In this document: piece by piece, positions 8,078 through 36,054 of the stretch
Layout: every line of letters starts with the position of its first letter
How positions within the stretch are numbered: the first letter of the stretch is position 1
Source: Candidatus Altiarchaeota archaeon
GTDB taxonomy: Archaea > Altiarchaeota > Altiarchaeia > IMC4 > SCGC-AAA252-I15
DNA: 64,000 nt
NCBI GenBank assembly: GCA_041306075.1
Contig: JBFYKH010000007.1
Span: 8,821 to 72,820 of the forward strand
Direction of reading: 5' to 3'
Program-made: the position numbers and the translations under genes
Notes under the pieces: model-generated
What the model was told of the DNA's origin: nothing
Seen by the model: only the letters and a program-made list of their open reading frames with translations
Databases searched by the model: none

Positions 8078-8176
8078 CGTTTACTCTTGTACTACCGGGT
8101 TAATAAAAGCGGTAAACCATTGGAAACTCGATGCTGCCTGAGCGCCATTCTCTCTCGTGCTTTAACCGGATGCAGG

Positions 8177-16164: not shown

Positions 16165-16230
16165 GGTATTTAAATGCGCCCCCCATCCTGTTGGCTTATA
16201 AACCCATTTTTCCCAATATATTGGTGGGAT
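16165..16230 (+). promoter_or_regulatory. AT-rich putative promoter region (TATA-like boxes) upstream of the first pilin-like gene
   Basis: TTTAAAT (16169), TTATAAA (16196) and AATATATT (16218) in an otherwise GC-rich context; GGTGA RBS 8 nt before the ATG at 16266. Confidence 0.25.
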
Positions 16231-16265: not shown

Positions 16266-16604
16266 ATGGAAAAGAAGTTGTTTTTTAGTGGATTTGTCCT
16301 GCTATTCTTGGCGGGACTGGTTGCAGCGCAGGCATCAGTTGCTCAGAGCGCTGTAGACGCGATTTGCGCGGTGCTGGAGAACATAACGTTTATGCTGTAT
16401 ATGATTACAGCAGCGGTCGGCATCGTGGTGATTGTGCTGCAGGGTATCAAGTGGGCTGGTTCAGCCGAGGACCCTGGAGCAAGGAAGTCTGCGAAGCAGG
16501 GCATCATCCATGCAGTCATTGGCATGATTATCGTGCTCTTGGCAGTATGGATTGTCGCGCTAGTATTCGGACAGGATGAGTGCGACGTCGCCGCCGTCCT
16601 ATAA
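16266..16604 (+). CDS. VirB2/TrbC-like pilin-sized membrane protein, paralogue 1
   Basis: 112 aa; signal peptide ending ...AAQASVA, then two hydrophobic helices separated by the short loop QGIKWAGSAEDPGARKSAKQGIIHAVIG; same architecture and motif as the 29011 and 29365 products. Confidence 0.6.
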   Translation: MEKKLFFSGFVLLFLAGLVAAQASVAQSAVDAICAVLENITFMLYMITAAVGIVVIVLQGIKWAGSAEDPGARKSAKQGIIHAVIGMIIVLLAVWIVALVFGQDECDVAAVL

Positions 16605-16610
16605 GCGGAT

Positions 16611-16666
16611 AATCTTTTTTGTGCCGGACCCGGTCCGGCACAACCTACTTTTTTCTTATTTTCTCA
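16611..16666 (+). terminator. Hairpin plus oligo-T terminator/attenuator after pilin-like gene 1
   Basis: T6, perfect hairpin GTGCCGGAC-CCG-GTCCGGCAC (16621-16641), then CTTTTTTCTTATTTTCTC. Confidence 0.5.
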
Positions 16667-16706
16667 ACAAAACGGCTTTTTTTCCTCATTTTACCATTAA
16701 CTTTTG

Positions 16707-19700
16707 ATGCTTGGGAGCCGTCTGTGCCATAGGCTGGCGACCGTCGTAGTAGTGTCCATACTACTCTCATACGCTGCCTCCTATGTTCTCGCAGGCAAGC
16801 CGGGGGAGCGCGGGCAGGAGGGCGCCGGCTGGTGGGACCAAGTCGGCTCCTGCGTCAAGCGCGAATCCACCTGGACGTATTTTATCCCCATTTACGGGCA
16901 GATTAAGGCATTTGGCACCCTGTTCTGTATCGGGAAGGTCACCGTAATATCGGTCGTCGTGAAGGGTTTATGGGCGATACTGAAGGACCTCATAATCGAA
17001 GGCTTCACCAAGCTATTGATACTGTTCCTGGGGTTCCTCGAGTCGGGGCTCACAGCGACCCCTGACTGGGACAGCGATGCCTACAACAATCTCTACGGCA
17101 TCGTGCTTACGATTATCACGCCGCTCCTCTTCGTGCAGATAATCGTTGTCGCAGGGTACCTGATGTTCTCGTCCATAGACCCCGGCCAGCGTTCCCGGGC
17201 GAAGACGATGCTCACCCGGCTCCTGATGTCGCTCGTCCTGGTCGGGATAGCCAAACCGGCCTACATACTGCTGTTTGACCTCATCAGCGGCCCAAACAGC
17301 ATAACCTCGGCAATATTCGACGCGACATATAACATAATCACGGGCGGGCCGCCCGGGGCTGGGGCGATAACCGCGATGGTCGCGATTTTCGCAGGCATAA
17401 TCGTGTTCGCCGTTTTCAGCGGCGTGGGCCTCACCCTCCTCGGGTGGGTGGTGGCGTATCTCCTCATAGTGGTGTTCATAGTGTACATCCGCTACTCCAT
17501 GATAGTCATGCTCTACATCATATTCCCCTTCACCATATTCCTCTACTACTTCGAGTACACCCGGAGCGTGGGCGGGGACTTCCTCATGAAGACGCTCATG
17601 TGGCTCATAATGGGCCCGGTGATGGCGCTTGTGGTCTCCGTGACTGTCATCTCGCTCGTCGTCTTCCTCGGGGGCGGCGACATGGGGGTGGCCCAAAACA
17701 TAGCGACGAGCCTCGAGGACGTGAAGGAAGACGGCGTGGTGGACGAGGGGGCGATAACCGCCATCGAAGGCCAGGTCAATCTCCCGGCCGGCAGTCTCCC
17801 TGCCGGCCAGGCCGAGCCGCCGTTCACCGAAGCCCTCCTGGCCAAGGTCATAGCATTGTTCATATTCCTCGGCGGCGTAGTGGCGTTGGTCGCCGTGCCG
17901 CTCGTCATGTCCTCGCTCATGCACTGGGTGGGCGGCGCAATGGCCGCGTCCGGGATGATGGGCATCTCGGCAGGCGGCCCCCTGGCGGAGCGTTGGAAGC
18001 AGCTCAGCCTCGTCACGGCCGGCGAGCTGATGATGGGGCGCGGGTCCCAGAGCCTCGTGTCCGCAGCCACGAACATATCCTACATGAACCGTGACGCGGT
18101 CATCGACGGGCAGGGGATGCTGCCCGGCCTCTTCGGCAGCGCGAAGACCGAGGCTTCCATGGCGTCGAAGGGTTCAGCCAGCAGGGGATTCATGGGCAAT
18201 CTTGCGGCCGCATTCAGCGACCACTCGTCGCCGGCCACTAAGGACTTCTATGACCGCTCAAGAGGCGCGGTTTACGGGACTCCCATGTCCGGCGGCCATC
18301 AGGGCGTGGAGTCCGGGATGTCGCAGCGGCCCCCCTTATCCGCCGGGAACAGGCCTCAGGACGGGTCATACGCCGCCGCAGGCGACGGCCGGGGTATGAG
18401 GGTGAATCCGGAGTACCTGAAGGACGACGGCCCCCCAGGTTCGCGTTCCCAGGGCGCTGGCATGCTGAATGCGCCGGCGTCTGAGCTGATTGGCGCGGAC
18501 GGGAAGCCGATGCCTACGTCGACCACCCATTACGACCAGCGTGCCGGGCAGGCCATGGTCACCTCAAGTGAGTCGCAATGGGGAGTGCTGCCGGCATTCA
18601 GGGTGATGGAGCGGATTGACAGCGTTTTCAAGGGCATGGGCGAGGTCAGGAAGGGCGTCTCCGCGGTGTTCAGGCAGAAGGGCAGGCGCCTTGAAGGCGT
18701 GAAGCTCGCCGGCCGCGGCGCCGGGAAGATTCTGGTTTCCGCCGTCCCCATCAGCCCGTTCATGCCTGTGAGGATGATGGGGCGGGTCATCTACACGCTC
18801 ACGCCCGTCCAGCTTCCTCCCGCATTGCAGCCCTACGGCTTCGCCATCGGCGGCGCGATGAAGGGCATCGGCTTAAGGCAGGTCTTCATGCGCACCAAGT
18901 GGGCTGAGCAGATGGGCGTCTACAGGAAAGCATACAAGAACCGGGTGGAGGACCTTGACAAGCTGGATGAAACCCATAAAACCGAGGTCGGGAAGCGGAA
19001 GGCGGGCGTAGACTACTCAAAGGAGGATGAGACGTACCGGCAGAAGCGCGGCAAGGTTCTCTCCGAGATGGGCCGGCTGGAGGACGGGGTGGTCAAGACC
19101 ATGGACCGGATGGGTTTCGGGAAGACTCCGTTCGCCGACGTGCTGCCCGAGAACCCCGACTACGTCTCCTACCTCAAGCATCTTGAGTTTCTGAAGAAGC
19201 AGCGCGACCAGACAGCGGAATCGAACCCGGCGGTTGCCGAACACAGCCTATACGACGCATACCTCCGGAAGTCCAGGGTCACCGAGAAGGACCACCTGAT
19301 GCAGCCGGCCTCGACGCTCTGGGAGAAGCACGAGAAGGGCGAGCTCAAGGGGAAGGATAAGGAGGAGTACGATAAGCTCGCGAAGTCTGCGCAGGCGTTA
19401 TCTGCGGTCCAGTTCGCCGACAACTCCAAGGACAAGTCGGGAGCGGCCGGAAGGCAGGAGAAGGCGCGTTTCATGGCCGCGGGCCTCATGAAGGCGATGG
19501 GCGTGGAGGATTCCATGGAGCAGCGGAGGTTCCTTGAAGCCCACACAGGCCTTCTGGAATTCGACAGGAATGGCGCGCTCACTAGGCAGAGGTATGTGCG
19601 CCTCGACGGCGCCATGGCGCAGGGCGCTCACAACAGGGAGTTCATATACCAGGAGACTTACGACAACAAGGGCGAGCCGCTCGTGAAGGCCGAGTCGGTG

Positions 19701-22019
19701 AACCTCCCCCTCCACAGGGACTCCGACGGCAACGTCTACGCGAGCCCGTATGACATGAAGTACCTGACCTCGTCGATGCGGCATGACGACTGGGCGAGGA
19801 ACAAGGCGCTGGCCAGCGGTTTTGCACTGAAGAACCCGATGCGGTTCACATTCAACTACTCCGACCAGACCGGCCGGTACGTCTCCGGCCAAGGCCAGGC
19901 GGATGCCGTGGCTGAGGTGGCATACGACCCGAAGGAGGGGGTTCTCCTCGGCCCTGACGGCGAACATGCCACCTTGGTCGGGCAGGGGGTGCAGACCCAC
20001 ATGGGCGACCGCGTACTCTTCGTCAGGACCAGCGAGTGGGCCGGGAAAATATATGCTCCCGAGGGGCGGGAGGCGACAGCCGAAGAGTCTAAGGCGGTGG
20101 CTGAAAAAATAAAGGCCGGGGAGAGAGTCGAAGGGTTCGTCGTCCAGGACTGGCTTGACAAGACGAAGTTCGTAGCCCCTACCGAGATGCGTCAGGGAGC
20201 TGACGGCGGAGTTCAATTCGGGTATAAGATATGGAGGCACTACGGCTACAACACCATCCCCACGGCCGACAAGAAGGGGCGCCCGGACATGTCGGCCCCG
20301 ACCCTCATAGGCCGCGACGGCATGGTGTCCGCCCTGAAGGGGATGCCGACCCACGAGGAGCTTAACGGGCCCATGACCCGGGAGATGAGGGGGAAGATGG
20401 AGGAAATCCTGCTCATCAACGGACGGAAACTGGACTACGGCACCCTCACCGACGATGCACTGCGGGAGGAGATGCGGAAGCTCAAGGACTCCAAGAACAA
20501 GGAGTTCGAGAAAGACTTAGACAAGGGGGCTGAGGGCCACAGGATGAAGGCCGGGGCTGAGGCGGCAAGTCGCCTCTCTGGCGCCGGCGTAGCCGGAATC
20601 AGCGCAGAGCAGGCGGCCGGCGTCGACGGCATGTTCGAAATTCACAAGGAGTACATAGCGGCTGCCAAGAACATAACCCTGGCTGGAACCAGATGGGGGT
20701 CATCGACGGGCCTGACCGATAGTGGGATACAGGCAATCAAGGCGTCAGTCCAGAAGACCGCGGCCGAGCACGGGGTCAGGGTTGCGAGCGTAAGCTTCTA
20801 CGACAGCGGCGACACGGCAAGCGACCCGAACCCTATGCTGGTCAGGTTCGAAGACGGGGCCCACCTTCAGGTGAATCTGGCATACATCGCGAATAAGGCC
20901 CGGGCGAGGATAGGCGTCCACGTCGCAGGGAGGGACAGGTCGATAGAGGCCATCAAAGCCGACAGGGCAAAGGCTATAGCGGCCATCGAAGGCGACAAAT
21001 CCAAGCCAAAAGCGGACCGGAAGAAAGCGATAGAGGCGGTTAACGACAAGAAAAAAGAGGAACTAGCGGCCGTAGATCGCGCATTCCACCAGGCAGTCTT
21101 CAAGGACATCGGCGACGGCCTTATACAAAAAGACCTGGATGAAGGGCTGGCTGATTTCCTGAAGCGGGCTGACGGCCACCTCAACCTCCACGAGCTGGCC
21201 GGCCACAACGCGGCGGAGAAGCATGTCGACGCGGTCATGAAGGCGACGAAGGAGAATTATGGCGCGGGGGGCAGGGGCTGGGCCCACAGATTGCTCATGT
21301 TCCGGATGACGAAGCGCAACATGACATTGGCCTCGAAGGAGGTCATAGCGGACGGCATAGTCCCCGACAAGATGACGATGCCGGACGGCACAGAAAAGGA
21401 TAATCCCTCGTTGATAAGGCTCTACGTCGGGGAAAAACAGGACGGCAGCGACGGCCTCATCGGCGAAATACGGAAGTACAAGCGCCTCGGCAGGCCGCAC
21501 CTGATAAACTTCGCGAGGGCTTCAGCCATCGCCAAATTCAGGGGCCTGAAGACGGATAATGGAGCCGATGTCTCCGCCATGTTCGACGAGGCATTGAAGG
21601 GGCAGAACTCGGAAGGAAAGGACCGGCTCACGAGCGGCCAGGCGAAAACATACGAGAAACTGAAGGCGTACTTCGCGGAGCAGGCCGGCCACGTTAAACG
21701 GGAACGCGACGCAATCTACAAAAAGACCGCCGAGGCGGGGAAGGCCAGGCAGGCGAAAATGAGCGGGGCCCAAAGCGGGCCGCAACAACAGAAGGCCCAG
21801 GACGGCCCGGTTGCGGGTGACCTCTCCCCGGAGAAGCGGCCTCAGGCGGAGGCGGGCAAGCGCGGCCAGATACCCCATCACGAGCCTCCTCACGACCACG
21901 ACGCCCCGGGAGCTGGCGGCGGGCACCATGGCGAGGGCCCTGCATCCGGCCCTGACGGGCAAGGGCCTGGAGACGGCGGAGACGGCGGCGGAGACGGCGG
22001 AGGAGACGGTGGAGACTGA
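16707..22019 (+). CDS. Giant membrane protein: N-terminal VirB6/TrbL-like polytopic domain (about 430 aa) plus about 1300-aa charged hydrophilic tail ending in a [DGG]n repeat
   Basis: 1771 aa (ATG at 16707; the track starts at TTG 16704); 8+ TM helices in the first 430 aa; long K/E/D/R-rich region; C-terminus ...HHEPPHDHDAPGAGGGHHGEGPASGPDGQGPGDGGDGGGDGGGDGGD. Confidence 0.55.
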   Translation: MLGSRLCHRLATVVVVSILLSYAASYVLAGKPGERGQEGAGWWDQVGSCVKRESTWTYFIPIYGQIKAFGTLFCIGKVTVISVVVKGLWAILKDLIIEGFTKLLILFLGFLESGLTATPDWDSDAYNNLYGIVLTIITPLLFVQIIVVAGYLMFSSIDPGQRSRAKTMLTRLLMSLVLVGIAKPAYILLFDLISGPNSITSAIFDATYNIITGGPPGAGAITAMVAIFAGIIVFAVFSGVGLTLLGWVVAYLLIVVFIVYIRYSMIVMLYIIFPFTIFLYYFEYTRSVGGDFLMKTLMWLIMGPVMALVVSVTVISLVVFLGGGDMGVAQNIATSLEDVKEDGVVDEGAITAIEGQVNLPAGSLPAGQAEPPFTEALLAKVIALFIFLGGVVALVAVPLVMSSLMHWVGGAMAASGMMGISAGGPLAERWKQLSLVTAGELMMGRGSQSLVSAATNISYMNRDAVIDGQGMLPGLFGSAKTEASMASKGSASRGFMGNLAAAFSDHSSPATKDFYDRSRGAVYGTPMSGGHQGVESGMSQRPPLSAGNRPQDGSYAAAGDGRGMRVNPEYLKDDGPPGSRSQGAGMLNAPASELIGADGKPMPTSTTHYDQRAGQAMVTSSESQWGVLPAFRVMERIDSVFKGMGEVRKGVSAVFRQKGRRLEGVKLAGRGAGKILVSAVPISPFMPVRMMGRVIYTLTPVQLPPALQPYGFAIGGAMKGIGLRQVFMRTKWAEQMGVYRKAYKNRVEDLDKLDETHKTEVGKRKAGVDYSKEDETYRQKRGKVLSEMGRLEDGVVKTMDRMGFGKTPFADVLPENPDYVSYLKHLEFLKKQRDQTAESNPAVAEHSLYDAYLRKSRVTEKDHLMQPASTLWEKHEKGELKGKDKEEYDKLAKSAQALSAVQFADNSKDKSGAAGRQEKARFMAAGLMKAMGVEDSMEQRRFLEAHTGLLEFDRNGALTRQRYVRLDGAMAQGAHNREFIYQETYDNKGEPLVKAESVNLPLHRDSDGNVYASPYDMKYLTSSMRHDDWARNKALASGFALKNPMRFTFNYSDQTGRYVSGQGQADAVAEVAYDPKEGVLLGPDGEHATLVGQGVQTHMGDRVLFVRTSEWAGKIYAPEGREATAEESKAVAEKIKAGERVEGFVVQDWLDKTKFVAPTEMRQGADGGVQFGYKIWRHYGYNTIPTADKKGRPDMSAPTLIGRDGMVSALKGMPTHEELNGPMTREMRGKMEEILLINGRKLDYGTLTDDALREEMRKLKDSKNKEFEKDLDKGAEGHRMKAGAEAASRLSGAGVAGISAEQAAGVDGMFEIHKEYIAAAKNITLAGTRWGSSTGLTDSGIQAIKASVQKTAAEHGVRVASVSFYDSGDTASDPNPMLVRFEDGAHLQVNLAYIANKARARIGVHVAGRDRSIEAIKADRAKAIAAIEGDKSKPKADRKKAIEAVNDKKKEELAAVDRAFHQAVFKDIGDGLIQKDLDEGLADFLKRADGHLNLHELAGHNAAEKHVDAVMKATKENYGAGGRGWAHRLLMFRMTKRNMTLASKEVIADGIVPDKMTMPDGTEKDNPSLIRLYVGEKQDGSDGLIGEIRKYKRLGRPHLINFARASAIAKFRGLKTDNGADVSAMFDEALKGQNSEGKDRLTSGQAKTYEKLKAYFAEQAGHVKRERDAIYKKTAEAGKARQAKMSGAQSGPQQQKAQDGPVAGDLSPEKRPQAEAGKRGQIPHHEPPHDHDAPGAGGGHHGEGPASGPDGQGPGDGGDGGGDGGGDGGD

Positions 22020-22058
22020 GATGAACTGCATGCATTCGGAATCGCGGAGGAAGCCCTG

Positions 22059-22562
22059 ATGGCTGAATACACCGACCTGGACCTGGAAGTGATAAAGAAC
22101 ATGAAGGAGGAGTGCATCCAAGAGGTGAAGGCAAACGCAGTGGACGACCTGTACTACTTCATCGTAGAACACAAGCACGGGAAGGGCGCGAGGGACCCGA
22201 TGATTCCGGTCGACTGGGACCTGGTGTTCAAGGAGAACCAGTGCCCCGAATGCAAGGATATAATCAGCCTCAGGGAGTTGACCTACGTCTGCGACAAGTG
22301 CGGCCTCAAGATACCCGTCAGGATGTACGATCTGGCATCGGAGGAATACTCCTCCTGGGTGAAGATACACGACGATGGCGTATCCCTGGCGGAGCGGATG
22401 CGGAAGGCCGGTTACTCCGATGAGCGCACGACCGCACTGTACGAGGATGCTGAGAGGCAGGCTTTCAGGGAGATAGAGTCCTTGAAAACGGAGGATGCGG
22501 GCAAATCCCGGAGGGGCGCCAGGATAGGGCCTTCATCCCGGGGGAGGGGCGGTGAAAGCTAA
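22059..22562 (+). CDS. Cytoplasmic zinc-ribbon protein (operon member)
   Basis: 167 aa; CPECK...CDKCG; GGAGGA RBS; overlaps the next gene by 11 nt. Confidence 0.5.
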   Translation: MAEYTDLDLEVIKNMKEECIQEVKANAVDDLYYFIVEHKHGKGARDPMIPVDWDLVFKENQCPECKDIISLRELTYVCDKCGLKIPVRMYDLASEEYSSWVKIHDDGVSLAERMRKAGYSDERTTALYEDAERQAFREIESLKTEDAGKSRRGARIGPSSRGRGGES

Positions 22563-24582
22563 GGCATTTGTCGCGCTCGTCCTGGTTTCGGCGCTAGCAT
22601 TCGCACTGGTCTCGGCGCAGAGCGACCGGGCAAGGCAGGGCACGTCCTGGATGAAAGAGCTCCTCCGCTCGCCCATGGAGATAATGGCGAAAACGTACAT
22701 CGAGCACACGCTGGGCTCCGTGGTCCAGGCATTGACCAACAACCCCACATTCTACTGCATTCCGGGGGACCCCACCTGCGCCGTCACCCCTGCGGGCATA
22801 GACCTGCTCATGAACAAGTGGATACACCTCCTCGTGCCTTTCTACATCGTCGCGATGCTGTTCACGGCCCTCTTCTTCCTCCTGAAGGCCGGCACGCCCC
22901 GCGGGCGGGCCAGGGCCAGGAGCATGGCGGTGAAACTCATATTCGGCATGGCCCTCGTCGCCCTCTCCCCCGTCATATACCAGACCCTCCTTGAGACCTC
23001 CGTGGTGCTGGTGAATTTCTTCCTCACGGGATACGCCACCGAACTGAACCTTGGGCTCATGACGGTACCCATCGACGCGCAGATATTCCCCCCGCTCGGG
23101 CAGGATGAGATAAACAACATGACGTGGGCGCTCGACAACACGGGCCTCACGATGTCGTGGATATTCATGTACGTCGCCTGCGGCACCCTCATACTCGGCA
23201 ACATCGTGCTCTGGTTCAGGAACATGATGGTCTATTTCTACGGCGTCTTCTTCCCGGTGATAATGTTCCTGTACACGTTCGAGGTGACCAAGCCCCAGGG
23301 CGAGAAATGGATAAACGGCTCCCTCAAGTGGATATTCGCCCCGGTTCTGCAGGCCATGCTCCTGGCGTTCACGGTGCAGGTAGCCAACAACATAAGCATG
23401 TGGAACTTCTCGGGGACTGTCGGCTCGATCGTGCTGACGTTCCTGAGCAACTCCCTGACCGGGATGATAATACTCGCAGGCATATCGGGGTTCATCATGG
23501 GGCCTATGATAGTCGGGCAGGCCATGAGCTGGTTCGGGGACGCAGTATCGTCCGTGGGCCTCGGCACAGGCAACCAGTGGATGGTGAGCATCGGCAACCT
23601 CCTTGCGGGCGGAGGCTCCGGATCGGTGCTCCAGGCCGAGGCGGAGTACGCCAGGGCGTCGTCTTACGAGCGCTACCGGACCATGATGACCGACCGCAGC
23701 ACGCCCGGGACCGCGACTCTCCGCCAGCCACAGGGCGCGTCGGGCCAGGCCCCGTCAATCGGCTCCCCGGGCCAACACTACGCCGCAAGCGGCGACAGCG
23801 CGCCGTCCGGCGGCCAATCCGCAGCCGGCCGCGGCGGCATGTTCGAGTCCTCAACACCTACGGCACAGCTCAGAAGCGCTTTGTCGTACGCCCCGGCCAG
23901 TGATGCTGGCGCCGGACAGTCGACGGGGGCGCCCGGCAACGAGTCTGCTGGCAGCCAACAGGACACATACTCCGGGACCCTGAGCGGCACCCAGACCGGC
24001 TCCCAGCCGCGCCAGCATCAGTCCTACTCGGGCAGCCCGTCCTCAGAGGATAGAGCAGCTAGTGGCTTCAGCCCGGAGGAGCTGAAGGGGGAGCTTGACC
24101 AGAGTTCAGCCAATGACGGCGGCACCCGCTCGGGAGCCGACGCAGCCGGGGATTCATATGCGGCATCCTCGTTCGGGGCGCTGATAAACGACGAGCTTAA
24201 GAAGGAAAAAACGTCCGAGACGATGAGGGCCCTGGCCACAGGAAAGCCCGGTATCAGCGTGCCCCGGGGGGAGGAAGTGGAGGTGCGCACGGGCTCGGCA
24301 GGGGGCATACCGTCAATCAGGACGCCGAGGACGCCGACAGCAGGCTCAAGGGGCATGGGCGCGCAGCCTACGGAGGATGAGGAGATGGCCAGGCTCGCAG
24401 GCATAGCGGCCGACAAGGAGCGGGAGCTGACCGGCCGGCAAATCGAACAGAAGCAGAAGATGGAGGGGATGCAGGCCGACCAGGTGCAGAGGGACGCCGG
24501 CAGAAGGCAGGCGGAAACGGACGGCAAAGCCGCTGAGAAGAAGGAGGCTGCGAAGCGCAGGAACGTGGACCGCGAGCGATGA
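22552..24582 (+). CDS. VirB6/TrbL-like polytopic membrane protein with long disordered S/G/T/Q-rich and K/E-rich C-terminal tail
   Basis: 676 aa; GTG start after GGAGG; signal peptide MKAKAFVALVLVSALAFALVSAQS, extracytoplasmic segment, 6-7 TM helices, low-complexity tail. Confidence 0.55.
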   Translation: MKAKAFVALVLVSALAFALVSAQSDRARQGTSWMKELLRSPMEIMAKTYIEHTLGSVVQALTNNPTFYCIPGDPTCAVTPAGIDLLMNKWIHLLVPFYIVAMLFTALFFLLKAGTPRGRARARSMAVKLIFGMALVALSPVIYQTLLETSVVLVNFFLTGYATELNLGLMTVPIDAQIFPPLGQDEINNMTWALDNTGLTMSWIFMYVACGTLILGNIVLWFRNMMVYFYGVFFPVIMFLYTFEVTKPQGEKWINGSLKWIFAPVLQAMLLAFTVQVANNISMWNFSGTVGSIVLTFLSNSLTGMIILAGISGFIMGPMIVGQAMSWFGDAVSSVGLGTGNQWMVSIGNLLAGGGSGSVLQAEAEYARASSYERYRTMMTDRSTPGTATLRQPQGASGQAPSIGSPGQHYAASGDSAPSGGQSAAGRGGMFESSTPTAQLRSALSYAPASDAGAGQSTGAPGNESAGSQQDTYSGTLSGTQTGSQPRQHQSYSGSPSSEDRAASGFSPEELKGELDQSSANDGGTRSGADAAGDSYAASSFGALINDELKKEKTSETMRALATGKPGISVPRGEEVEVRTGSAGGIPSIRTPRTPTAGSRGMGAQPTEDEEMARLAGIAADKERELTGRQIEQKQKMEGMQADQVQRDAGRRQAETDGKAAEKKEAAKRRNVDRER

Positions 24583-25583
24583 AAGACGACAAGGGCGGGC
24601 GCAGGCTCCAAGAGGAGATAGAGAAGACCGACCAGGAGCTGAGGAAGCTCGACGATAAGGCGGAGGAGCGGGAGGGGAGGAAGCTCGCCGTCGAGGAGGA
24701 CCTGCAGACCAAGTCCAGGATACTCAAGCGGAAGCTGATGGAACCCGCCCAGGCATCGGGCGCGGCTCCCGGGAAGAAGTCCGAGGAAAAGCCCCTCAGG
24801 GCCGAATCCCCGGAGACCCTGCTCAAGGAAGCCGTCCTGCGCCACCAGAACTCCCGGCTGGAAGAAAGGCGCGGAAGACGCGCCCAAATGACGACCGACG
24901 CCAGGGCTAGGATGCGCATAACGTTGGGGGTGGAGTCCGCCATCAACGAATCCATGGAACGCGACCTCCGCGGCCTGGAGGAAACGTCCGACGGCCGTCT
25001 GAAGCGTATACGGGAGCTGAGCGCCAGACGCGCGGGCGGTGGCGGTTCAGCCCAGGAATCGGCCGAGCTGAGGCGCCTGGAGGACAATGAGGCCGACAGA
25101 TACTACCTCAGGGAGCGTCTCCTCAGCCGCATCCGCCTAGAAGAGCTCGGGGAATACGGCTGGGTGAGGCCGATAGGGGACGGGATGCTCGGCATCAAGC
25201 CGTACACCGTCCTGACGCAGTACGACCGGCTGAGCCCGTCGAACAAGCGGGGCGTGAGGTGGCAGTCGGACTCCCTGATGATGCGATTCCAGAACGCAAT
25301 CGTCGGCCACTATGCGCCGAAGAAGGCTTCGTTCTCCTGGCTTCACGAGAAGACCCTCAAGGGCTTCGAGACCCAGTTCGACGACATAAACGAGGAGATA
25401 TACTCCGACAAGAAGTGGGCGGAGACGGTGCGCAAGGGACAGGCGCGGCTGGAGGACATGGAGGAGGAGCTTAGGGGATACGACAATTTCACCGTCGAGG
25501 AGGAGCGGAAGATAAAGAAGCTCTTCAGCGACTACATGAAGAAGCAGGTGGAATTGGGCAAGGAGATAGAATACAATCCCTGA
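24579..25583 (+). CDS. Charged coiled-coil protein (operon member; VirB8/VirB10-like role unknown)
   Basis: 334 aa; start overlaps the upstream stop (ATGA); highly charged E/R/K-rich helical sequence. Confidence 0.45.
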   Translation: MKDDKGGRRLQEEIEKTDQELRKLDDKAEEREGRKLAVEEDLQTKSRILKRKLMEPAQASGAAPGKKSEEKPLRAESPETLLKEAVLRHQNSRLEERRGRRAQMTTDARARMRITLGVESAINESMERDLRGLEETSDGRLKRIRELSARRAGGGGSAQESAELRRLEDNEADRYYLRERLLSRIRLEELGEYGWVRPIGDGMLGIKPYTVLTQYDRLSPSNKRGVRWQSDSLMMRFQNAIVGHYAPKKASFSWLHEKTLKGFETQFDDINEEIYSDKKWAETVRKGQARLEDMEEELRGYDNFTVEEERKIKKLFSDYMKKQVELGKEIEYNP

Positions 25584-25627
25584 GTTATATATTCACCCAA
25601 GACTAATTTATCCCATGAGGTCGACCG

Positions 25628-26536
25628 ATGCCATACGCCATACCCGCTAACATCAGGTACGAGGAGCGGCTCGTAGGCCCGCTGACTATAAAGCAGTCGC
25701 TCTACCTCGGCGCATGCCTTATGGTCGCATGGTTCATATACCAGTCGCCGGAGCTTCCGCCGCCAACCAACGTGGTGGTCGCGCTCCTAGTGGCGGTGAT
25801 AGGGATAGGTTTCGCATTCTTCAACCTGGACGTCTGGCTGACGAACTACATCACCTTCCTCGGACTCACGAAGAAGAGCTCCTGGATTTCGCCCGCGGCG
25901 AGGAAGCTGATGGGCATCAAGTCCATCCGCACGGCATCCATCTACTTCCAGGACAACAAGGTCGTGGGCGTCGTGAAGGTGAAGCCCATCAACTTCGGCG
26001 TCCTGGCGGAGCAGGACAAGGACACGGTCATCTACGGATTCCTGGAGTTCCTGAACTCCCTGAACTTCCCGGTGCAGATAGTCATGCGCAGCGTGAACCT
26101 GGACCTGGAGGACTATCTCCGCCACCTGAAACGGCGGATAGTGCAGCGCGACGACAAGGTGGCGCTCGCCTACTACGAGCACTTCTCGGAGTACATGAGG
26201 AGCTACATAAAGGTGAACAAGATAAACGACAGGCACTTCTACGTCGTCGTCCCCGGCCAGAAGAAGAGGTCGGAGAAGGAGACGATAGACTACCTCGACA
26301 CCCAGTGCAACGAGATAATGGGCCGGCTGTCGCTGTCCGGGATAGTCTCGGAGCGGATGAACGACCGGCAGCTCCTGAACCTGTACAAGTCATATTTCAC
26401 GGACAGCTTCGAGCTCTACGACAGCTACATAAGCCCCATAACCATGTACCGGAAGATGTGGAAGGAGGCGCCGAAGCCTGTCAAGGAGATGAGGGGGGGC
26501 CGGGGGGATGAGCCCCAGGGGGCGGGTGAAGTCTAA
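25628..26536 (+). CDS. Membrane-anchored protein: VirB3-like 2-TM N-terminus plus a domain resembling the N-terminal domain of VirB4/TrbE ATPases
   Basis: 302 aa; two TM helices at residues about 25-75; ...SIYFQDNKVVGVVKVKPINFGVLAEQDKDTVIYGFLEFLNSLNFPVQIVMRS... as in the VirB4 N-domain; 3' end overlaps the next ORF in a G7 tract. Confidence 0.5.
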   Translation: MPYAIPANIRYEERLVGPLTIKQSLYLGACLMVAWFIYQSPELPPPTNVVVALLVAVIGIGFAFFNLDVWLTNYITFLGLTKKSSWISPAARKLMGIKSIRTASIYFQDNKVVGVVKVKPINFGVLAEQDKDTVIYGFLEFLNSLNFPVQIVMRSVNLDLEDYLRHLKRRIVQRDDKVALAYYEHFSEYMRSYIKVNKINDRHFYVVVPGQKKRSEKETIDYLDTQCNEIMGRLSLSGIVSERMNDRQLLNLYKSYFTDSFELYDSYISPITMYRKMWKEAPKPVKEMRGGRGDEPQGAGEV

Positions 26537-28811
26537 GATGGCATTCGGGTTCGGAGGGTCGAAGGCGAAGGAGAAGACCGAGGCAGAGTCGTATACGGAG
26601 TATGAGGACCGTCTCATAGAATACCTGACCTCGCCGTCCACCATCAACATCAAGCCGTCGGTGATAGAGATAAACAAGCTCCATCAGGTGATATGCGCCA
26701 TCAACTATCCGCGTCTCGTGGACCCGGGCTGGCTGACCCGGCTCATAGAGATGAACCTGGACTTCGACCTTGCCATACACATCAGCCCCTACAAGATAGA
26801 CACCACCATCAAGCTCCTCGAGGCGGAGATAAAAAAGCAGAAGACGGACCTGTATGCCCTCGAGACGGAGGGCAAGATAGTCCCGCAGGCCCTGATACAG
26901 CAGCACCAGGACACGATGGCGCTCCTGCAGCTCGTCCAGGAAGGCACGGAGAAGATGTTCGACATGTCGCTCTACCTAGATGCCAAGGCATTCAACAAGG
27001 AGGACATGGAGCGGATAAGCAAGCAGATAAGGGACACCATGAACAGCATCATGATAATCCCGAAGATACCCTCGTACCAGATGTACAAGGCCCTTCGGAG
27101 CGTCCTGCCGCTCGGCGTCGACGAGCTGCAGGTGACGAGGAACATCACAAGCTCAGCCGCGGCCGCCTGCTTCCCGTTCGCCATCACTTCGCTTGAGCAG
27201 CACGCGACCGGCATCCTAATAGGGTTCAACGAATACAACAGCATCCCCATCATAATCGACCCGTTCCAGCTGTCCAACCCCAACATACTGGTGCTCGGCA
27301 CCTCGGGCGGCGGGAAGAGCTACTCGATAAAGCTGATACTCATGAGGGAGTTCATGGAGGGCGTCTCCATCAACATCATCGACCCGCAGGCGGAGTACAC
27401 GGACCTTGTGAGGACCTTCAACGGCGAGATAATCAGGATAGCCCCGGACTCGGACAGCGTCATCAACCCGTTCGACCTGATGGACCAGACGTTCGACGAG
27501 AAGAAGCTATCCCTCCTCGCATTCTTCAGGTGCCTCCTCGGGGAGCTCACGGAGCCGCAGAGGGCGATACTAGACGAGACCATAGACCGCACATACGAGG
27601 AGAAGGGCATAAACAAGGACTCCAAGACCTGGAGCCGCCAGCCGCCCCTCCTCGAGGACCTGTACAACGAGGTGCTCCCGCTCACGAAGTCCCAGAAGGA
27701 GATAATCTACGGCCCCGCGATGGCCATCGTGAACCGCCTCAAGAGCTACGTCTTCGGGCCGATGAGGTTCCTGAACCAGCACACGAGGATAAACATCTCC
27801 AACCGGATGATAAGCTTCGACATCAAGGACTCGCCCGACATCGGCAAGGGCACCATCATGTTCCTGCTCCTCGAGTACGTGTACACCCAGATGAAGAAGT
27901 CGAAGACCAGGAAGATACTCGTCATCGACGAGGCCTGGACGGTCCTTTCGGCAGGCGAGCAGGCCGAGTACGTGCTCCGTCTCGTCAAGACGTGCAGGAA
28001 GTTCAACCTGGCGCTCATCATGATAACCCAGGACGTGGAGGACGTCCTCGTCTCCCGGGCCGGCAGGGCGGTTCTGACGAACACGGCCACGAAGATACTC
28101 CTCAAGCAGGACACCTCCATACTTGACCAGATAGTAGAGCGCTTCAACCTCAACCAGGCGGAGCGGCGATTCCTCCAGATTTCCACGATGGGCCGCGCCC
28201 TCCTGATAGCCGAGACCACGAGAGTCCCCATATACGTGCAGGCGTCCCCGGAGGAGCATAGGATAATAACGACCCGTCCCGACGAGCTCATAAACCGCCG
28301 GGAGGTGAAGCGTCCGGAGGGGGAGGACCTGGTTAAGGAGTTCGACATAAACAAGGTCGTCCAGCGGAAGGAGGACCTGGACGACGACCAGATACAGGCG
28401 CTCGGGCAGAGGGACTTCGGAGAGGTGCGCGTCAAGAACCTGAGCGGCGAGTCGGAGCTGTACCTGATAAAGAACGAGACCGAGGACACGGACGAGCACT
28501 TCGTCATGCAGCAGCTGATATTCAACGAGGTCAGGAGGTACACAGACAAGGTCCTGATACACCACACCCGGCTGCCCGACATCACGTTCGAGACCCGCAC
28601 CGGCAAGATGGTCGCAATCGAGATCGAGGCGGACGTGGGCCTCAAGAAGGGCATAGACAACATGCAGGACAAGCTCCCGCTGATGCAGAAGTACGACGAC
28701 TACTTCTACGTGGTCTCCAACCCGGCGCTTAAGAGGGACTACGGCAGCAAGTTCGGGGACATGCTGGCGCGGGAGGAGGTCCAGCAGAGGATTGCGACCT
28801 ATTTCGTGTGA
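26508..28811 (+). CDS. VirB4/TrbE/TraC-family (CedB-like) secretion ATPase with extra C-terminal domain of about 190 aa
   Basis: 767 aa; Walker A ILVLGTSGGGKSYSI, Walker B KILVIDEAWTV, ...LALIMITQ...; C-terminal extension ...PDITFETRTGKMVAIEIEADVGLKKG... Confidence 0.8.
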   Translation: MSPRGRVKSKMAFGFGGSKAKEKTEAESYTEYEDRLIEYLTSPSTINIKPSVIEINKLHQVICAINYPRLVDPGWLTRLIEMNLDFDLAIHISPYKIDTTIKLLEAEIKKQKTDLYALETEGKIVPQALIQQHQDTMALLQLVQEGTEKMFDMSLYLDAKAFNKEDMERISKQIRDTMNSIMIIPKIPSYQMYKALRSVLPLGVDELQVTRNITSSAAAACFPFAITSLEQHATGILIGFNEYNSIPIIIDPFQLSNPNILVLGTSGGGKSYSIKLILMREFMEGVSINIIDPQAEYTDLVRTFNGEIIRIAPDSDSVINPFDLMDQTFDEKKLSLLAFFRCLLGELTEPQRAILDETIDRTYEEKGINKDSKTWSRQPPLLEDLYNEVLPLTKSQKEIIYGPAMAIVNRLKSYVFGPMRFLNQHTRINISNRMISFDIKDSPDIGKGTIMFLLLEYVYTQMKKSKTRKILVIDEAWTVLSAGEQAEYVLRLVKTCRKFNLALIMITQDVEDVLVSRAGRAVLTNTATKILLKQDTSILDQIVERFNLNQAERRFLQISTMGRALLIAETTRVPIYVQASPEEHRIITTRPDELINRREVKRPEGEDLVKEFDINKVVQRKEDLDDDQIQALGQRDFGEVRVKNLSGESELYLIKNETEDTDEHFVMQQLIFNEVRRYTDKVLIHHTRLPDITFETRTGKMVAIEIEADVGLKKGIDNMQDKLPLMQKYDDYFYVVSNPALKRDYGSKFGDMLAREEVQQRIATYFV

Positions 28812-28851
28812 TGACCGTAGGCTTTTTAACGCCTGCTGCAATAACTAACTG

Positions 28852-29007
28852 ATGGTGCCAATCACCAGGGACAACCGCTTGTGCACGCACCGTGTCGGCA
28901 ACAAATGCGGAAACCAGAAGGTCGGAAACGCCCCTGTCGTGAACGACAGCCTCCAGTCCAGGTGGTACTGCAGCAACTGTCCCTACTACTTCAAGGCGTC
29001 AGGCTGA
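28852..29007 (+). CDS. Small Cys-rich (zinc-finger-like) protein, 51 aa
   Basis: Below the track cutoff: MVPITRDNRLCTHRVGNKCGNQKVGNAPVVNDSLQSRWYCSNCPYYFKASG*; fills the gap between the ATPase and the pilin genes. Confidence 0.35.
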   Translation: MVPITRDNRLCTHRVGNKCGNQKVGNAPVVNDSLQSRWYCSNCPYYFKASG

Positions 29008-29010
29008 AAC

Positions 29011-29328
29011 ATGGCCCCCATAAGCGTCATGCTTGCGCGCCATGCAGCAGCCTTCATGCTGGCGTTCGCCCTGGCGGGGTTCGCCCAGGCCCAGTGCTAC
29101 GAGCCCTTGGGCTCCGACCTGATGAAACCCGTAAAGAATATCATAGACTTCCTGGTGGTGATAGCCTACCCCATCGGATTCTTCATGATAGTCTACATGG
29201 GGGTAAAATGGATAATCTCCGAGGGCCCCGAAGACCGGGAGAACGCCAGGCGCGGGGTCATCTACGTGATAATAGGCCTGATACTCCTCAGGTCCGCGTT
29301 CTATCTGGTCACATACCTCCTGTGCTAG
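29011..29328 (+). CDS. VirB2/TrbC-like pilin-sized membrane protein, paralogue 2
   Basis: 105 aa; signal peptide ...AGFAQAQ; motif MGVKWIISEGPEDRENARRGVIYVIIGLILL between two hydrophobic helices. Confidence 0.6.
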   Translation: MAPISVMLARHAAAFMLAFALAGFAQAQCYEPLGSDLMKPVKNIIDFLVVIAYPIGFFMIVYMGVKWIISEGPEDRENARRGVIYVIIGLILLRSAFYLVTYLLC

Positions 29329-29364
29329 GCTCGGATTAATAAGCATAAAGGCGTATTTGCTACC

Positions 29365-29688
29365 ATGGCATCGCCAAGGTTAATCCTAGCGGCCGTCCTG
29401 ATAGTCTCTCTCCTGTCGATGGCGGCTTCCGCTCAGACCCCTCTCAGCTGGGTCGTCGGCCTGAAGAGGGTGGCGTTCGCGCTCGGGTGGATAATGATGG
29501 TCTTCATGGGCGTTAAATGGATTGTCGCGGACAGCGCCAATGAGAGGGCGGAGGCGAAGAAGGGGATGATATACATCGTCATCGGCCTCCTGATCGTGGC
29601 GAGCGTTTCAAGCCTGCTCCAGATGTACTGCGACGTGGTCGCCTCGTCCGGGGTGGCGGGCTTCACCTGCACGGCGGGGTCCTACTAG
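29365..29688 (+). CDS. VirB2/TrbC-like pilin-sized membrane protein, paralogue 3
   Basis: 107 aa; signal peptide ...SMAASAQT; motif MGVKWIVADSANERAEAKKGMIYIVIGLLIV; C-terminal Cys pair. Confidence 0.6.
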   Translation: MASPRLILAAVLIVSLLSMAASAQTPLSWVVGLKRVAFALGWIMMVFMGVKWIVADSANERAEAKKGMIYIVIGLLIVASVSSLLQMYCDVVASSGVAGFTCTAGSY

Positions 29689-29730
29689 GGGCTCGTGCGG
29701 CCCAAGCCGCAGTCAGCCTTCTTTCTCCCA
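29689..29730. terminator. Putative bidirectional hairpin terminator between convergent genes
   Basis: TGCGGC-CCAA-GCCGCA hairpin (29696-29711) followed by a T-rich run, exactly between the stops of the pilin-3 and PLD genes. Confidence 0.3.
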
Positions 29731-30285
29731 CAGGTTCCTGAAATATGCCTCAAAGTACCTGGCAGTCTCCTCATCGCTTATGAGCACGTCGACTTCATTG
29801 TTCCTCTCGAGGCCGAAGTAGCTGAAGTTGGTGCTTCCTAGGAGGACCTTTTTGCCGTCGACTATGATTAGCTTCGCGTGCGTCGTCGTCTCGTTGGAGT
29901 CCATCCTGACTTCTACGCCCCCCGCCCTCAGGACCTCGAAGGCGTTGTTCTCCTTAGAGTACTCGTCAGCCACCACCCTCACGTCCACGCCCCTCTCCTT
30001 GGCGTACACGAGATCCCTCACGAGCCTGTTCTGGCGGCTCCCGGGATTCGTCTCGTAGTACTTCATCTCGAATGCCACGATGTGCACGCTCTTCTTAGCC
30101 TCCGTTATCGCCTTATGCGCCTCCTCATAGTATCCGCGGTCGGATATGGGCACCACGACCGGCTCGCCTTCCCGTGAAGGGGAGCCGCAGGCGTAGCCTA
30201 TGCCGGCGTCGCGGACCAGGGCCCCCAGGACGACTCCGACGAAGACCCCCGCCAACAAGCCCCACAGTAACGGCCGCCCCATCAC
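29713..30285 (-). CDS. Phospholipase D-family (HKD) endonuclease, Nuc-like, membrane-anchored
   Basis: 190 aa; N-terminal TM; HKD motif THAKLIIVDGKKVLLGSTNFS. Confidence 0.7.
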   Translation of the reverse strand: MMGRPLLWGLLAGVFVGVVLGALVRDAGIGYACGSPSREGEPVVVPISDRGYYEEAHKAITEAKKSVHIVAFEMKYYETNPGSRQNRLVRDLVYAKERGVDVRVVADEYSKENNAFEVLRAGGVEVRMDSNETTTHAKLIIVDGKKVLLGSTNFSYFGLERNNEVDVLISDEETARYFEAYFRNLWEKEG

Positions 30286-35330: not shown

Positions 35331-35339
35331 AATCGCCCC

Positions 35340-35616
35340 GATCCACCCCCGGCTTTTGGCCGGGGGTGGGGGGTGGTTGGCTGAATTACCACATCCTTGT
35401 GGATGTGATTGTAACCTCCGCAGCCCCATATTGCGGAGGTGATGGCGTTCGTCCCATCATGGAGTGATGCGATTTTTTTTGGCGAGCCTGATCCACCCCC
35501 GGCTTTTGGCCGGGGGTGGGGGGTGGTTGGCTGAATTACCACATCCTTGTGGATGTGATTGTGAGCCAGATCCACCCCCGGCTTTTGGCCGGGGGTGGGG
35601 GGTGGTTGGGGTGATG
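35340..35616. repeat. Tandem G-rich double-hairpin repeat (2 full copies of about 73 bp plus 1 partial)
   Basis: GATCCACCCCCGGCTTTTGGCCGGGGGTGGGGGGTGGTTGGCTGAATTACCACATCCTTGTGGATGTGATTGT at 35340 and 35490 (150-bp period); partial copy at 35569; each unit has hairpins CACCCCCGGC/GCCGGGGGTG and CACATCC/GGATGTG. Confidence 0.7.
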
Positions 35617-35625
35617 TAATAAGCG

Positions 35626-36054
35626 TTACCTTATCCTGTAGTACACTCTCCGGCCGGCGTATTCCTTTTCAAGCCTGCCTTCGTGGAATAACTTCGATAG
35701 TCTGGCGCTTGCCGCGTTCTTTCCCTTGTAGCCGAGCTTTTTCTGTAGTTCGTCGGCGCATATCCTCCCCTTCTCCCTGACATGTTCGAGGACTTCGATG
35801 TCCCGGTCGGTGAGGTCGGCCGTCTCCTGGTTTTTGCGGCCTTGTTGTTGGGCCATGCCCTCTATCTTTGCGCCGAGCGCCTCTATCTGGGAGTTGAGGT
35901 TCTTGATTATGAGGTTCGTGCTTTTGCGCTCTTCGGCGAGCTGGTATAGCATGAGTCCGATGGCGACGGGGTCTTGTATCTGGTTCGTGGCCTGGGCTAC
36001 TTCGCCGAGGAGTTCCTTGTATTCTTTCTCGTATTCAGCCCCGCTACCTTTCAT
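35626..36054 (-). CDS. Winged-helix DNA-binding protein with N-terminal coiled coil
   Basis: 142 aa; C-terminal wHTH ...LEHVREKGRICADELQKKLGYKGKNAASARLSKLFHEGRL... Confidence 0.5.
   Translation of the reverse strand: MKGSGAEYEKEYKELLGEVAQATNQIQDPVAIGLMLYQLAEERKSTNLIIKNLNSQIEALGAKIEGMAQQQGRKNQETADLTDRDIEVLEHVREKGRICADELQKKLGYKGKNAASARLSKLFHEGRLEKEYAGRRVYYRIR

Follow-up and report, generated by a model that had tools for sequence, protein, structure and literature searches.

A predicted minimal type IV secretion system with a nuclease-fold domain on its motor, probably fixed in the chromosome of Altiarchaeota

The window analyzed here is a stretch of 64 000 nucleotides from a contig (JBFYKH010000007.1) of a Candidatus Altiarchaeota archaeon. 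Between positions 16266 and 29688 the map of open reading frames (ORFs) and their translations reveal a single uninterrupted array of genes on the plus strand, in which the intergenic gaps are short or the genes overlap, by 11 nt between C and D, 4 nt between D and E (24579–24582) and 29 nt between F and G. In order, the products are a pilin (A), a giant polytopic membrane protein (B), a small cytoplasmic protein (C), a second polytopic protein (D), a coiled-coil protein (E), a VirB3–VirB4 fusion (F), a VirB4 ATPase (G), a 51-aa protein with four cysteines, and two more pilins (H and I). The components belonging to the type IV secretion system (T4SS) superfamily of VirB4-based mating-pair-formation machines, namely VirB4, a VirB3-like protein, a VirB6-like protein and a VirB2/TrbC-type pilin, are thus all present, and there is good support for the identity of the machine. 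A preliminary description of this DNA had listed the consecutive plus-strand ORFs with their coordinates and overlaps, all of which the map and translations confirm; its gene list missed the conserved 51-aa gene.

The VirB4 motor is divided between two genes

Protein F contains a PrgI/VirB3 membrane hairpin at residues 5–78 (PF12666, 29.8 bits against a cut-off of 27). It also carries a VirB4 N-terminal (TrsD/TraC-like) domain, matched by the TrsD/TraD model (E = 7e-6), and its orthologues carry the TraC-like family PF26593. The relationship between F and G is seen most clearly with NF045975, the model of the VirB4 of the Mycoplasma integrated conjugative element (ICE). Positions 74–277 of the model align to residues 66–259 of F, and positions 278–893 align to G, starting exactly at the end of F. 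Because the two proteins tile one VirB4 profile without a gap, together they form a VirB3–VirB4N and VirB4C split, and because the two genes recur in all relatives examined the split is a conserved feature and not a frameshift. The preliminary description had proposed a VirB3-like protein followed by VirB4; the PrgI and VirB4 matches uphold this, but F is not a VirB3 alone since it includes the VirB4 N-terminal domain.

The ATPase itself is a VirB4. G is matched by P-loop_TraG (91.5 bits), by NF045971 for the CD1110-family VirB4 (292 bits) and by NF045975 (246 bits), and among sequences of known structure its best match is the Thermoanaerobacter VirB4 domain 4AG5 (E = 1.7e-33), ahead of TrwK (3e-4). 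The CD1110 model is the best scoring of these, yet 292 bits is below its curated equivalog cut-off of 325. The Walker A (GTSGGGKS) and Walker B (VIDEAW) motifs are invariant in 19 homologues of G, so the assignment as VirB4 holds on profile and motif. Scores against the crenarchaeal Ced models are far lower (CedB NF041017 55.9 bits, with a cut-off of 700, and CedD 51.5 bits), and judged by these profiles the ATPase is of the monoderm-conjugation type (CD1110 family) and not CedB.

Two further observations concern VirB4 in the relatives, whose loci are given L numbers and whose proteins P numbers here. An intein (Intein_splicing) is inserted into the ATPase domain of three homologues having the same architecture as G (P0112, P0117 and P0147), that of P0147 with a LAGLIDADG homing endonuclease. 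Insertions of this kind are typical of archaeal proteins that are essential and strongly conserved. A number of Altiarchaeota-type genomes (SCGC AAA252-I15, LFW-28 and WJMO01 Bin_400; loci L046, L047 and L083) have a second copy of VirB4 that is 37–40% identical; at L083 the match begins at query residue 264, and F, a pilin and a VirB6-like gene were not detected nearby.

A nuclease-fold domain is fused to the C-terminus of VirB4

The preliminary description had noted a C-terminal extension of the VirB4. The extension exists, but it is a folded domain in its own right. Residues 600–767 of G, modelled with 39 homologues, gave a pLDDT of 91.5, and Foldseek matched the model to YaeQ, to NucS/EndoMS (probability 0.99–1.0), and to Hjc, VRR_NUC and Card1/Can2, all of them proteins of the PD-(D/E)xK fold. 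According to the model, therefore, this is a PD-(D/E)xK restriction-endonuclease-fold domain. The sequence of the domain matched nothing significant among those of the Protein Data Bank (PDB).

The fusion is found in ∼500 protein clusters. Searching 1.84 billion representatives with a profile of the domain gave 536 clusters at 50% identity. In the full-length matches the domain is always C-terminal in a protein of 730–1100 aa, at the end of a VirB4, and seven of ten shorter matches are fragments of VirB4 and one carries an intein. Those clusters of the VirB4–nuclease fusion that are named come from DPANN-type archaea, and Nanoarchaeota was the sole name returned for the taxonomy of the cluster members. 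Certain residues, of a metal-binding type, are almost invariant. H664 is conserved in 135 of 136 representatives, and D691, in the motif P690-D691, in all 136. E705 is present in 132, the remaining four having aspartate; E707 is found in 131 and K722 in 130, the latter located on the helix that follows the motif.

No plasmid-borne VirB4 with this domain was found: 2769 plasmid records were matched by tblastn, with no place covering ≥80% of the query. The best plasmid matches of G are VirB4s of Actinobacteria and Firmicutes, at 27–31% identity. In one locus from Iainarchaeota (L086, 12338–17533) a complete type I restriction-modification system comprising HsdR, HsdM and HsdS directly follows the VirB4–nuclease gene on the same strand.

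Two VirB6-like proteins

The polytopic N-terminal domains of B and D are paralogous (BLASTP E = 1e-13). In B a domain of ∼450 aa is followed by ∼1300 aa of poorly conserved, non-hydrophobic sequence, while D comprises a signal peptide, a polytopic domain (approximately residues 80–340) and a low-complexity tail that ends in a coiled coil. Neither protein has a Pfam match of its own. The assignment comes from the family, for which an alignment of 42 members of the B/D-type domain was scanned member by member. Five match PF04610 TrbL/VirB6 (best E = 5e-5), and 25 match the T4SS_pilin model via their first helical hairpin. A profile search with the domain finds DPANN members of ∼340 aa that carry PF19590 (TrbL_3), and VirB6-like proteins of ∼350 aa in DPANN loci match the polytopic domain of B; a search with the transmembrane domain of D alone returned one protein. 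The array thus has the VirB6-like polytopic membrane protein expected of the T4SS superfamily, and the earlier proposal of two such proteins, one of 1771 aa, is borne out by the paralogy and by the TrbL/VirB6 matches within the family. The VirB6-like profile found nothing significant among PDB sequences.

Orthologues of B are large in all nine loci where they were found, at 1380–1692 aa. The soluble part of ∼1300 aa matched nothing in Pfam or among PDB sequences. Within it the orthologues have a zincin-like motif of HExGH type (HELGH, HEKGH or HEGGH). The window protein, like that of L040, has HELAGH at residues ∼1495–1501 (nt ∼21190), one residue longer than the motif of the orthologues, and an assignment of B as a metalloprotease was dropped on that account. 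From its sequence the site is possibly a peptidase remnant. In two Altiarchaeales metagenome-assembled genomes (MAGs) the VirB4 genes adjoin four to five VirB6-like paralogues in tandem, each of ∼310–420 aa (L021, 6987–12919, and L036, 1170–6462).

Three pilins, one of them set apart

All three small proteins exceed the Pfam gathering threshold of 26.6 bits for PF18895 T4SS_pilin, with scores of 34.1 (A), 47.0 (H) and 34.7 bits (I), which confirms the three pilin-sized VirB2/TrbC-like proteins of the preliminary description. A (29.3 bits) and H (35.8 bits) also pass the cut-off of PF04956 TrbC/VirB2. Each of the three has a signal peptide with AxA at its end, followed by two hydrophobic helices with a basic loop between them, a pattern shown by an alignment of 53 family members. 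Against PDB sequences the pilin profile gave nothing significant, the best match being the Pf3 phage coat protein with E = 0.027, taken as noise.

Pilin A stands at the head of the array with sequences of its own. A Shine-Dalgarno-like GAGGTGAG lies 6 nt upstream of the gene and TATA-like AT-rich boxes are found upstream at ∼16166–16205. The hairpin that follows the gene is the strongest terminator-like site between 15900 and 30400, and the sole one on the plus strand; it is possibly an attenuator or terminator that sets an excess of pilin. We infer that upstream boxes, Shine-Dalgarno-like site and downstream hairpin would fit a separately dosed major subunit. The G+C content at third codon positions (GC3) of pilin A is 0.60, far below that of every other gene in the window, and this together with the boxes and the hairpin may mean that A is transcribed or dosed separately, or that a pilin cassette has been exchanged. 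A scan for sigma-70 promoters was set aside as not applicable to archaea, its counts being at chance level.

The array is a resident of the chromosome

The array is embedded in housekeeping genes. Upstream are those for S7, EF-2, EF-1alpha and tRNA-Glu, and downstream those for DtdA, ThrRS, RpiA, prefoldin, FtsY and PolD DP2/DP1. The presence of PolD confirms the earlier assignment of a non-crenarchaeal host, and by the homologues of G the host is an Altiarchaeota archaeon. GC3 is 0.79–0.88 in the genes of the array and 0.80–0.92 in the housekeeping genes, with only pilin A outside this range. A scan of 40 flanking ORFs over the window and ten products of the cluster gave no match to an integrase, relaxase, replication initiator or VirD4/FtsK-type ATPase, and so the absence of relaxase, VirD4 coupling ATPase and integrase noted in the preliminary description, like its housekeeping flanks, is upheld. 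Archaeal relaxases are unknown so far (PMC12857230), and for this reason the missing relaxase is not fully conclusive. There are no att-like direct repeats bracketing the array, nor is the 3′ end of tRNA-Glu repeated around the cluster; the search for repeats that was proposed to distinguish an ICE from a chromosomal system speaks against an ICE.

The same site and order are found in a relative. The 536-kb contig WJMO01000006.1, with a VirB4 that is 81% identical, has the same gene order as the window on both sides: U1(−), then A-B-C-D-E-F-G-51aa-pilins, then PLD(−)-DtdA(−) and onward to ThrRS-RpiA-prefoldin. Here the synteny that the preliminary description suggested looking for in related MAGs is plain. 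Other relatives have local rearrangements, yet the neighbours are housekeeping genes only. Within the same loci VirB4 is 77–81% and F 72% identical, compared with 70–72% for ThrRS and 50–63% for DtdA. VirB4 and F are therefore at least as conserved as ThrRS and more so than DtdA, while evolution is fast in the pilins and in B, C, D and E. The gene upstream of the array, on the minus strand, encodes a 622-aa membrane protein that is orthologous to the upstream neighbour in WJMO01000006.1 (36% identity, E = 5e-114). Its identification with a PMT_2 glycosyltransferase adjoining the system in L002 was rejected, as the two are not homologous.

How general is this array in the archaea? Scanning one genome for each GTDB species gave 145 relatives. 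The 80 best genome matches are all archaeal except for two MAGs that are probably mis-binned. Named homologues of G come almost exclusively from MAGs of Candidatus Altiarchaeota/Altiarchaeales (54–100% identical), and a VirB4 of 60–86% identity is present in ∼45 Altiarchaeota species genomes, including a 1.39-Mb IMC4 contig and a 1.56-Mb metagenomic contig. A second tier at ∼40% identity comprises Iainarchaeota (Diapherotrites), Undinarchaeota and other archaeon MAGs. The components were described earlier as highly divergent; instead they are members of a family whose conservation extends over Altiarchaeota and further DPANN-type archaea. Co-occurrence was counted for the 44 loci with enough flank, where VirB4 is accompanied by F in 41, by a pilin-profile protein in 39 and by a VirB6-profile protein in 30. 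In the DPANN tier the module consists of pilin, a ∼350-aa VirB6-like protein, F and G. Only in the Altiarchaeota clade of the window are C, E and the 51-aa protein found, along with B's giant extension and D's tail.

The two exceptional MAGs, labelled Spirochaetia and Peregrinibacteria, hold loci of the archaeal family (L045 and L065). The BLAST profile of L065 equals that of an 'uncultured archaeon' locus (L058), its ORFs agreeing in length and in identity to the proteins of the window, and both bacterial labels are probably binning errors. In a sister clade (L018–L020, L043 and L087, ∼12.3–14.6 kb in each) the gene after VirB4 encodes a protein of 739–757 aa with a pilin-type hairpin. This protein, a candidate for a pilus tip or adhesin, is not encoded in the window.

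Accessory genes, the PLD neighbour and other features of the window

C has only weak zinc-ribbon matches in Pfam, and E has no match in Pfam or the PDB. Both have orthologues in the same position in related loci, at 25–40% identity in 12 loci for C and 27–45% in at least nine for E. The 51-aa gene, too short to figure in the default list of ORFs, was found by translation, and its product has four cysteines in the sequence MVPITRDN..C.HR....C......VNDSLQSRWYCSNCPY. Nine distinct related loci (L001 and L006 being one place) encode proteins 49–80% identical at the corresponding position, and the gene is annotated in the database records for L084 and L085. The product is taken as a putative zinc-ribbon protein. 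A 152-aa ORF that overlaps the gene (28881–29339) was rejected as spurious.

Downstream of the array, and convergent with it, is a gene (J) for a phospholipase D (PLD)/HKD protein with a membrane anchor (PLDc_2, 86 bits). Nucleases of the Nuc/NucT type accompany some T4SSs. The PLD gene is not co-oriented with the array; it shares its strand with dtdA, whose stop codon it overlaps by 4 nt. It is again beside dtdA in WJMO01000006.1 (L001/L084), and there pheS lies between it and the pilins, while in L085 (JAZDMS010000022.1) it is absent from that place. Because of the overlap with dtdA, and the separation from the pilins by pheS in the relative, we regard it as probably co-transcribed with dtdA and not part of the system. 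Thus the convergent nuclease of the preliminary description is real, but its membership of the system is not upheld; a functional link with the array is possible and is not supported here.

Other features lie elsewhere in the window. The intergenic region after ftsY (35337–35641) contains three copies of a 76-nt element, two of them 99% identical and the third 66%, each with the palindrome CCACCCCCGGCTTTTGGCCGGGGGTGG. The plus strand at 6434–7360 encodes a secreted protein of 308 aa, with much Gln and Gly, on tandem repeats of ∼100 nt (three copies of 105 nt, 71–88% identical). Neither this protein nor four further ORFs up to position 12635 gave a Pfam match, and one of the four (7655–8620) is seemingly non-coding.

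Table 1. Positions in the window of the genes, domains and hairpin of the array and of the neighbouring PLD gene
Feature	Position	Strand	Remarks
Pilin A	16266..16604	+	112 aa; signal peptide and two hydrophobic helices, VirB2/TrbC-type
Hairpin after pilin A	16619..16643	+	11 bp, 7 GC, T-runs on both sides
B, giant VirB6-like protein	16704..22019	+	1771 aa; likely start is the ATG at 16707
C, cytoplasmic zinc-ribbon protein (CPEC...CDKC)	22059..22562	+	167 aa
D, VirB6-like protein	22552..24582	+	676 aa
E, soluble coiled-coil protein	24579..25583	+	334 aa
F, VirB3/PrgI and VirB4 N-terminal domain fusion	25628..26536	+	302 aa
G, VirB4, whole gene	26508..28811	+	767 aa
G residues 1–599, VirB4 ATPase proper	26508..28304	+	Walker A 264–271, Walker B 470–477
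G residues 600–767, predicted PD-(D/E)xK fold domain	28305..28811	+	C-terminal, fused to VirB4
Four-Cys gene	28852..29007	+	51 aa; C-x-H...C...C-x2-C; between VirB4 and pilins
Pilin H	29011..29328	+	105 aa
Pilin I	29365..29688	+	107 aa
J, PLD/HKD Nuc-like protein	29713..30285	−	N-terminal membrane anchor; neighbour gene, probably not a component

Comparison with known systems

Going by the description of its parts, no described system comes closer than the T4SS of Patescibacteria, which has several pilins and no relaxase and is encoded in the chromosome (PMC12102498). That system is chromosomal, with a monoderm-type VirB4, TrsD, PrgI, VirB6, 2–11 VirB2-like pilins and usually no relaxase (PMC12102498). 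It occurs phylum-wide, its arrays of divergent pilins having been detected with PF18895/PF04956 (Quinonero-Coronel et al. 2025, PMC12102498), and in Southlakia epibionticum it is essential for epibiotic growth (PMC12857230). Both are chromosomal relaxase-less clusters of VirB4, TrsD, PrgI and VirB6 with an array of VirB2-like pilins. The present system differs in having an archaeal host, in the fusion of PrgI and TrsD within F, where no VirB3–VirB4 fusions are reported in the candidate phyla radiation (CPR) (PMC12102498), and in the PD-(D/E)xK domain of VirB4, of which we found no mention for CPR. It has two VirB6 paralogues, one with a 1300-aa extension, while genes for a VirD4/type IV coupling protein (T4CP), a VirB1-like and a VirB8-like protein are not recognized.

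Ced of Sulfolobales and Ted of Thermoproteales import DNA, and are domesticated derivatives of T4SSs with VirB2-, VirB6- and VirB4-like proteins (PMC9905601); the two have no recognizable sequence similarity to each other (PMC9905601). Like them, the array is archaeal and chromosomal, is reduced to a VirB2-like pilin, VirB6-like channel and VirB4-like ATPase, and lacks a relaxase and a coupling protein, and like TedC its pilins have a cleavable signal peptide. The resemblance to Ced/Ted claimed in the preliminary description thus stands for composition. It does not extend to a specific relationship of sequence, given 56 bits for CedB and 51.5 for CedD against 292 for the CD1110 VirB4, and A, B, D, H and I gave no match at E ≤ 1 to any Ced-named NCBIfam model in a library whose Ced membrane-protein models were not verified. 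In addition the array has a VirB3 and a separate VirB4 N-terminal domain, it has the nuclease fusion, its hosts are Altiarchaeota/DPANN rather than Crenarchaeota, and the HerA, ParA and Rad50 neighbours are missing.

The closest VirB4 sequences, and the closest solved structure (4AG5), belong to the monoderm mating-pair-formation (MPF) class MPF-FATA (pGO1 TrsC-TrsD-TrsE and the Clostridioides CD1110-type ICEs), with which the gene order VirB3–TrsD–VirB4 is also shared. Those systems are borne on plasmids and ICEs that also encode a relaxase, a T4CP, a cell-wall hydrolase and an adhesin, but they have no VirB2 pilins, whereas the present one is chromosomal, possesses pilins, lacks mobility functions and has gained a nuclease domain. 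Finally, for DPANN we found a single remark, that VirB4/TraG-like ATPase domains are present in the giant 'SPEARE' proteins of nanohaloarchaea and in the product of a gene next to theirs (PMC10266531). There too a DPANN archaeon has a giant membrane-anchored protein beside a VirB4-family ATPase, with a proposed T4SS-like role between cells (PMC10266531). However, that protein is made of Ig-like repeats and itself holds the ATPase domain, and no pilins or VirB6 are described, whereas the giant protein here is a VirB6 paralogue without recognizable repeats.

In the full-text literature, excluding papers available by subscription only, we found no description of a system of this kind in Altiarchaeota or DPANN, so that the system as a whole is apparently undescribed, as was claimed at the outset. 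A 2025 review of the superfamily has nothing for Altiarchaeota or DPANN (PMC12857230). Some homologues have already been labelled 'VirB4 family' or 'TraC' by database annotators. Among domesticated minimal T4SSs the new elements would be the VirB3–VirB4N/VirB4C–nuclease split and fusion, the duplicated VirB6 with its giant extension, and a fixed chromosomal site across Altiarchaeota.

Discussion

We propose that the array encodes a vertically inherited, chromosomally fixed ('domesticated') minimal T4SS of Altiarchaeota and related DPANN-type archaea that probably handles DNA, a reading to which we give a probability of about 0.55. It would be the archaeal counterpart of the T4SS of Patescibacteria and, in function, close to Ced/Ted. 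In such a machine F would anchor a hexameric G to the membrane at a platform formed by B and D, and ATP hydrolysis by G would pull processed pilins from the membrane into a conjugative-type pilus or conduit. Pilin A, with a promoter of its own and the hairpin acting as an attenuator, would supply subunits in excess. The substrate of the B/D channel would be nucleic acid, most likely DNA, which we infer from the nuclease fusion and the precedents of Ced/Ted and ComB. The cytoplasmic nuclease domain would cut or resect the substrate at the base of the machine, and might thereby either replace the missing relaxase and coupling protein in export, or process incoming DNA in import, as with Ced/Ted and the ComB of H. 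pylori. The role would most likely be the exchange or uptake of DNA between cells. Relatives of T4SSs that lack a relaxase and move nucleic acids or are chromosomal include Ced/Ted (PMC9905601) and the Patescibacteria T4SS (PMC12102498, PMC12857230). A bolder form of the proposal, which we hold tentatively, is that this is an ancient, vertically kept DNA-transfer organelle of Altiarchaeota/DPANN, derived from conjugation independently of Ced/Ted, in which the VirB4-fused nuclease replaces relaxase and coupling protein. The nuclease would then cut chromosomal or incoming DNA at the entrance to the channel, and pilin, VirB6 and VirB4–nuclease would suffice for exchange or uptake.

A number of points weigh against the proposal that we favour. 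It is drawn from sequence and fold. At the third position of the (D/E)xK motif the canonical Lys is gone, replaced by E, I or V, so that catalysis would hinge on K722 of the next helix; this is plausible, but the domain could instead be a DNA-binding or regulatory module. The structural model of VirB6 is only moderately confident (pLDDT 69.7), and C, E and the 1300-aa part of B are without an assigned role. Unlike Ted loci, the array contains no gene for a ssDNA-binding protein, ParA, HerA or recombination. The best-studied Altiarchaeota are autotrophs and not obvious scavengers of nucleic acids, and they have a reported outer membrane, while no outer-membrane core components were recognized.

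What else could the machine do? It may be a lifestyle machine for interaction between cells, of the kind found in Patescibacteria, mediating attachment to partners and the exchange of metabolites, RNA or effector proteins with them, with the nuclease-fold domain degrading imported nucleic acid for nutrition or having a regulatory function. The parts list is the same as that of the Patescibacteria T4SS (PMC12102498), and most of the DPANN-type lineages in which the family occurs (Iainarchaeota, Nanoarchaeota and other archaeon MAGs) are episymbionts. The pilin-domain proteins of 740–760 aa in related loci could be tip adhesins, giant surface proteins are linked to VirB4 ATPases in nanohaloarchaea (PMC10266531), and T4SS-like tubes at the parasite–host interface have been reported together with RNA feeding in a Patescibacteria relative (bioRxiv 10.64898/2026.06.21.733656). 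On the other hand, a nuclease fused to the motor suggests that a polynucleotide is handled, and if the cargo is nucleic acid this explanation merges with the one that we favour. Moreover, Altiarchaeota are not known as obligate episymbionts, and neither effector-like genes nor a T4CP, the usual needs of T4SSs that secrete proteins, are found in the array. We consider this explanation rather unlikely, though the most serious of the alternatives. Less probable again is that the VirB4/VirB6 core serves only to build VirB2-type pili for adhesion or biofilm, transporting nothing, with a nuclease fold that is catalytically dead. Altiarchaeota are biofilm formers, and such a role would be consistent with the several pilin paralogues, with the separate expression of pilin A and its attenuator-like hairpin, and with the loss of the motif Lys. 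A dead domain is hard to square with the near-invariance of H664, D691, E705 and K722 over hundreds of diverged clusters, and all VirB4/VirB6/VirB2 systems that have been studied move a substrate as well (PMC12857230).

The idea that the array is an ICE or a decayed integrated plasmid of the monoderm MPF-FATA type is very unlikely and close to refuted. The best VirB4 matches are indeed to families of conjugative plasmids and ICEs (CD1110, 292 bits; Mycoplasma ICE, 246 bits; plasmids of Firmicutes and Actinobacteria at 27–31% identity), L046, L047 and L083 have a second, divergent VirB4, and pilin A has a deviant GC3. Yet no integrase, relaxase, T4CP or replication gene was found in the 64 kb and no direct repeats flank the array; both flanks are syntenic in a genome with an 81% identical VirB4, the genes are conserved better than ThrRS, and codon usage is native.

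The archaeal relatives of T4SSs have so far been the crenarchaeal and Thermococcus plasmids and the crenarchaeal Ced/Ted importers. In the system proposed here a conjugation-derived machine would have become a fixed part of the chromosome throughout an archaeal phylum and in its relatives, where it is constrained more strongly than an aminoacyl-tRNA synthetase. Its parts list resembles that of the essential T4SS of Patescibacteria, which points to convergent or shared solutions in two 'ultrasmall' radiations, and the fusion of motor and nuclease offers a concrete hypothesis for the handling of DNA by relaxase-less systems. The three pilins, the nuclease domain and the 51-aa putative zinc-ribbon protein are defined targets in Altiarchaeota biofilms, which can be sampled naturally. 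If our proposal is correct, the system would be an archaeal mirror image of the essential CPR T4SS, and would provide a mechanism, open to testing, by which genes flow among uncultivated ultrasmall archaea and these acquire nucleotides.

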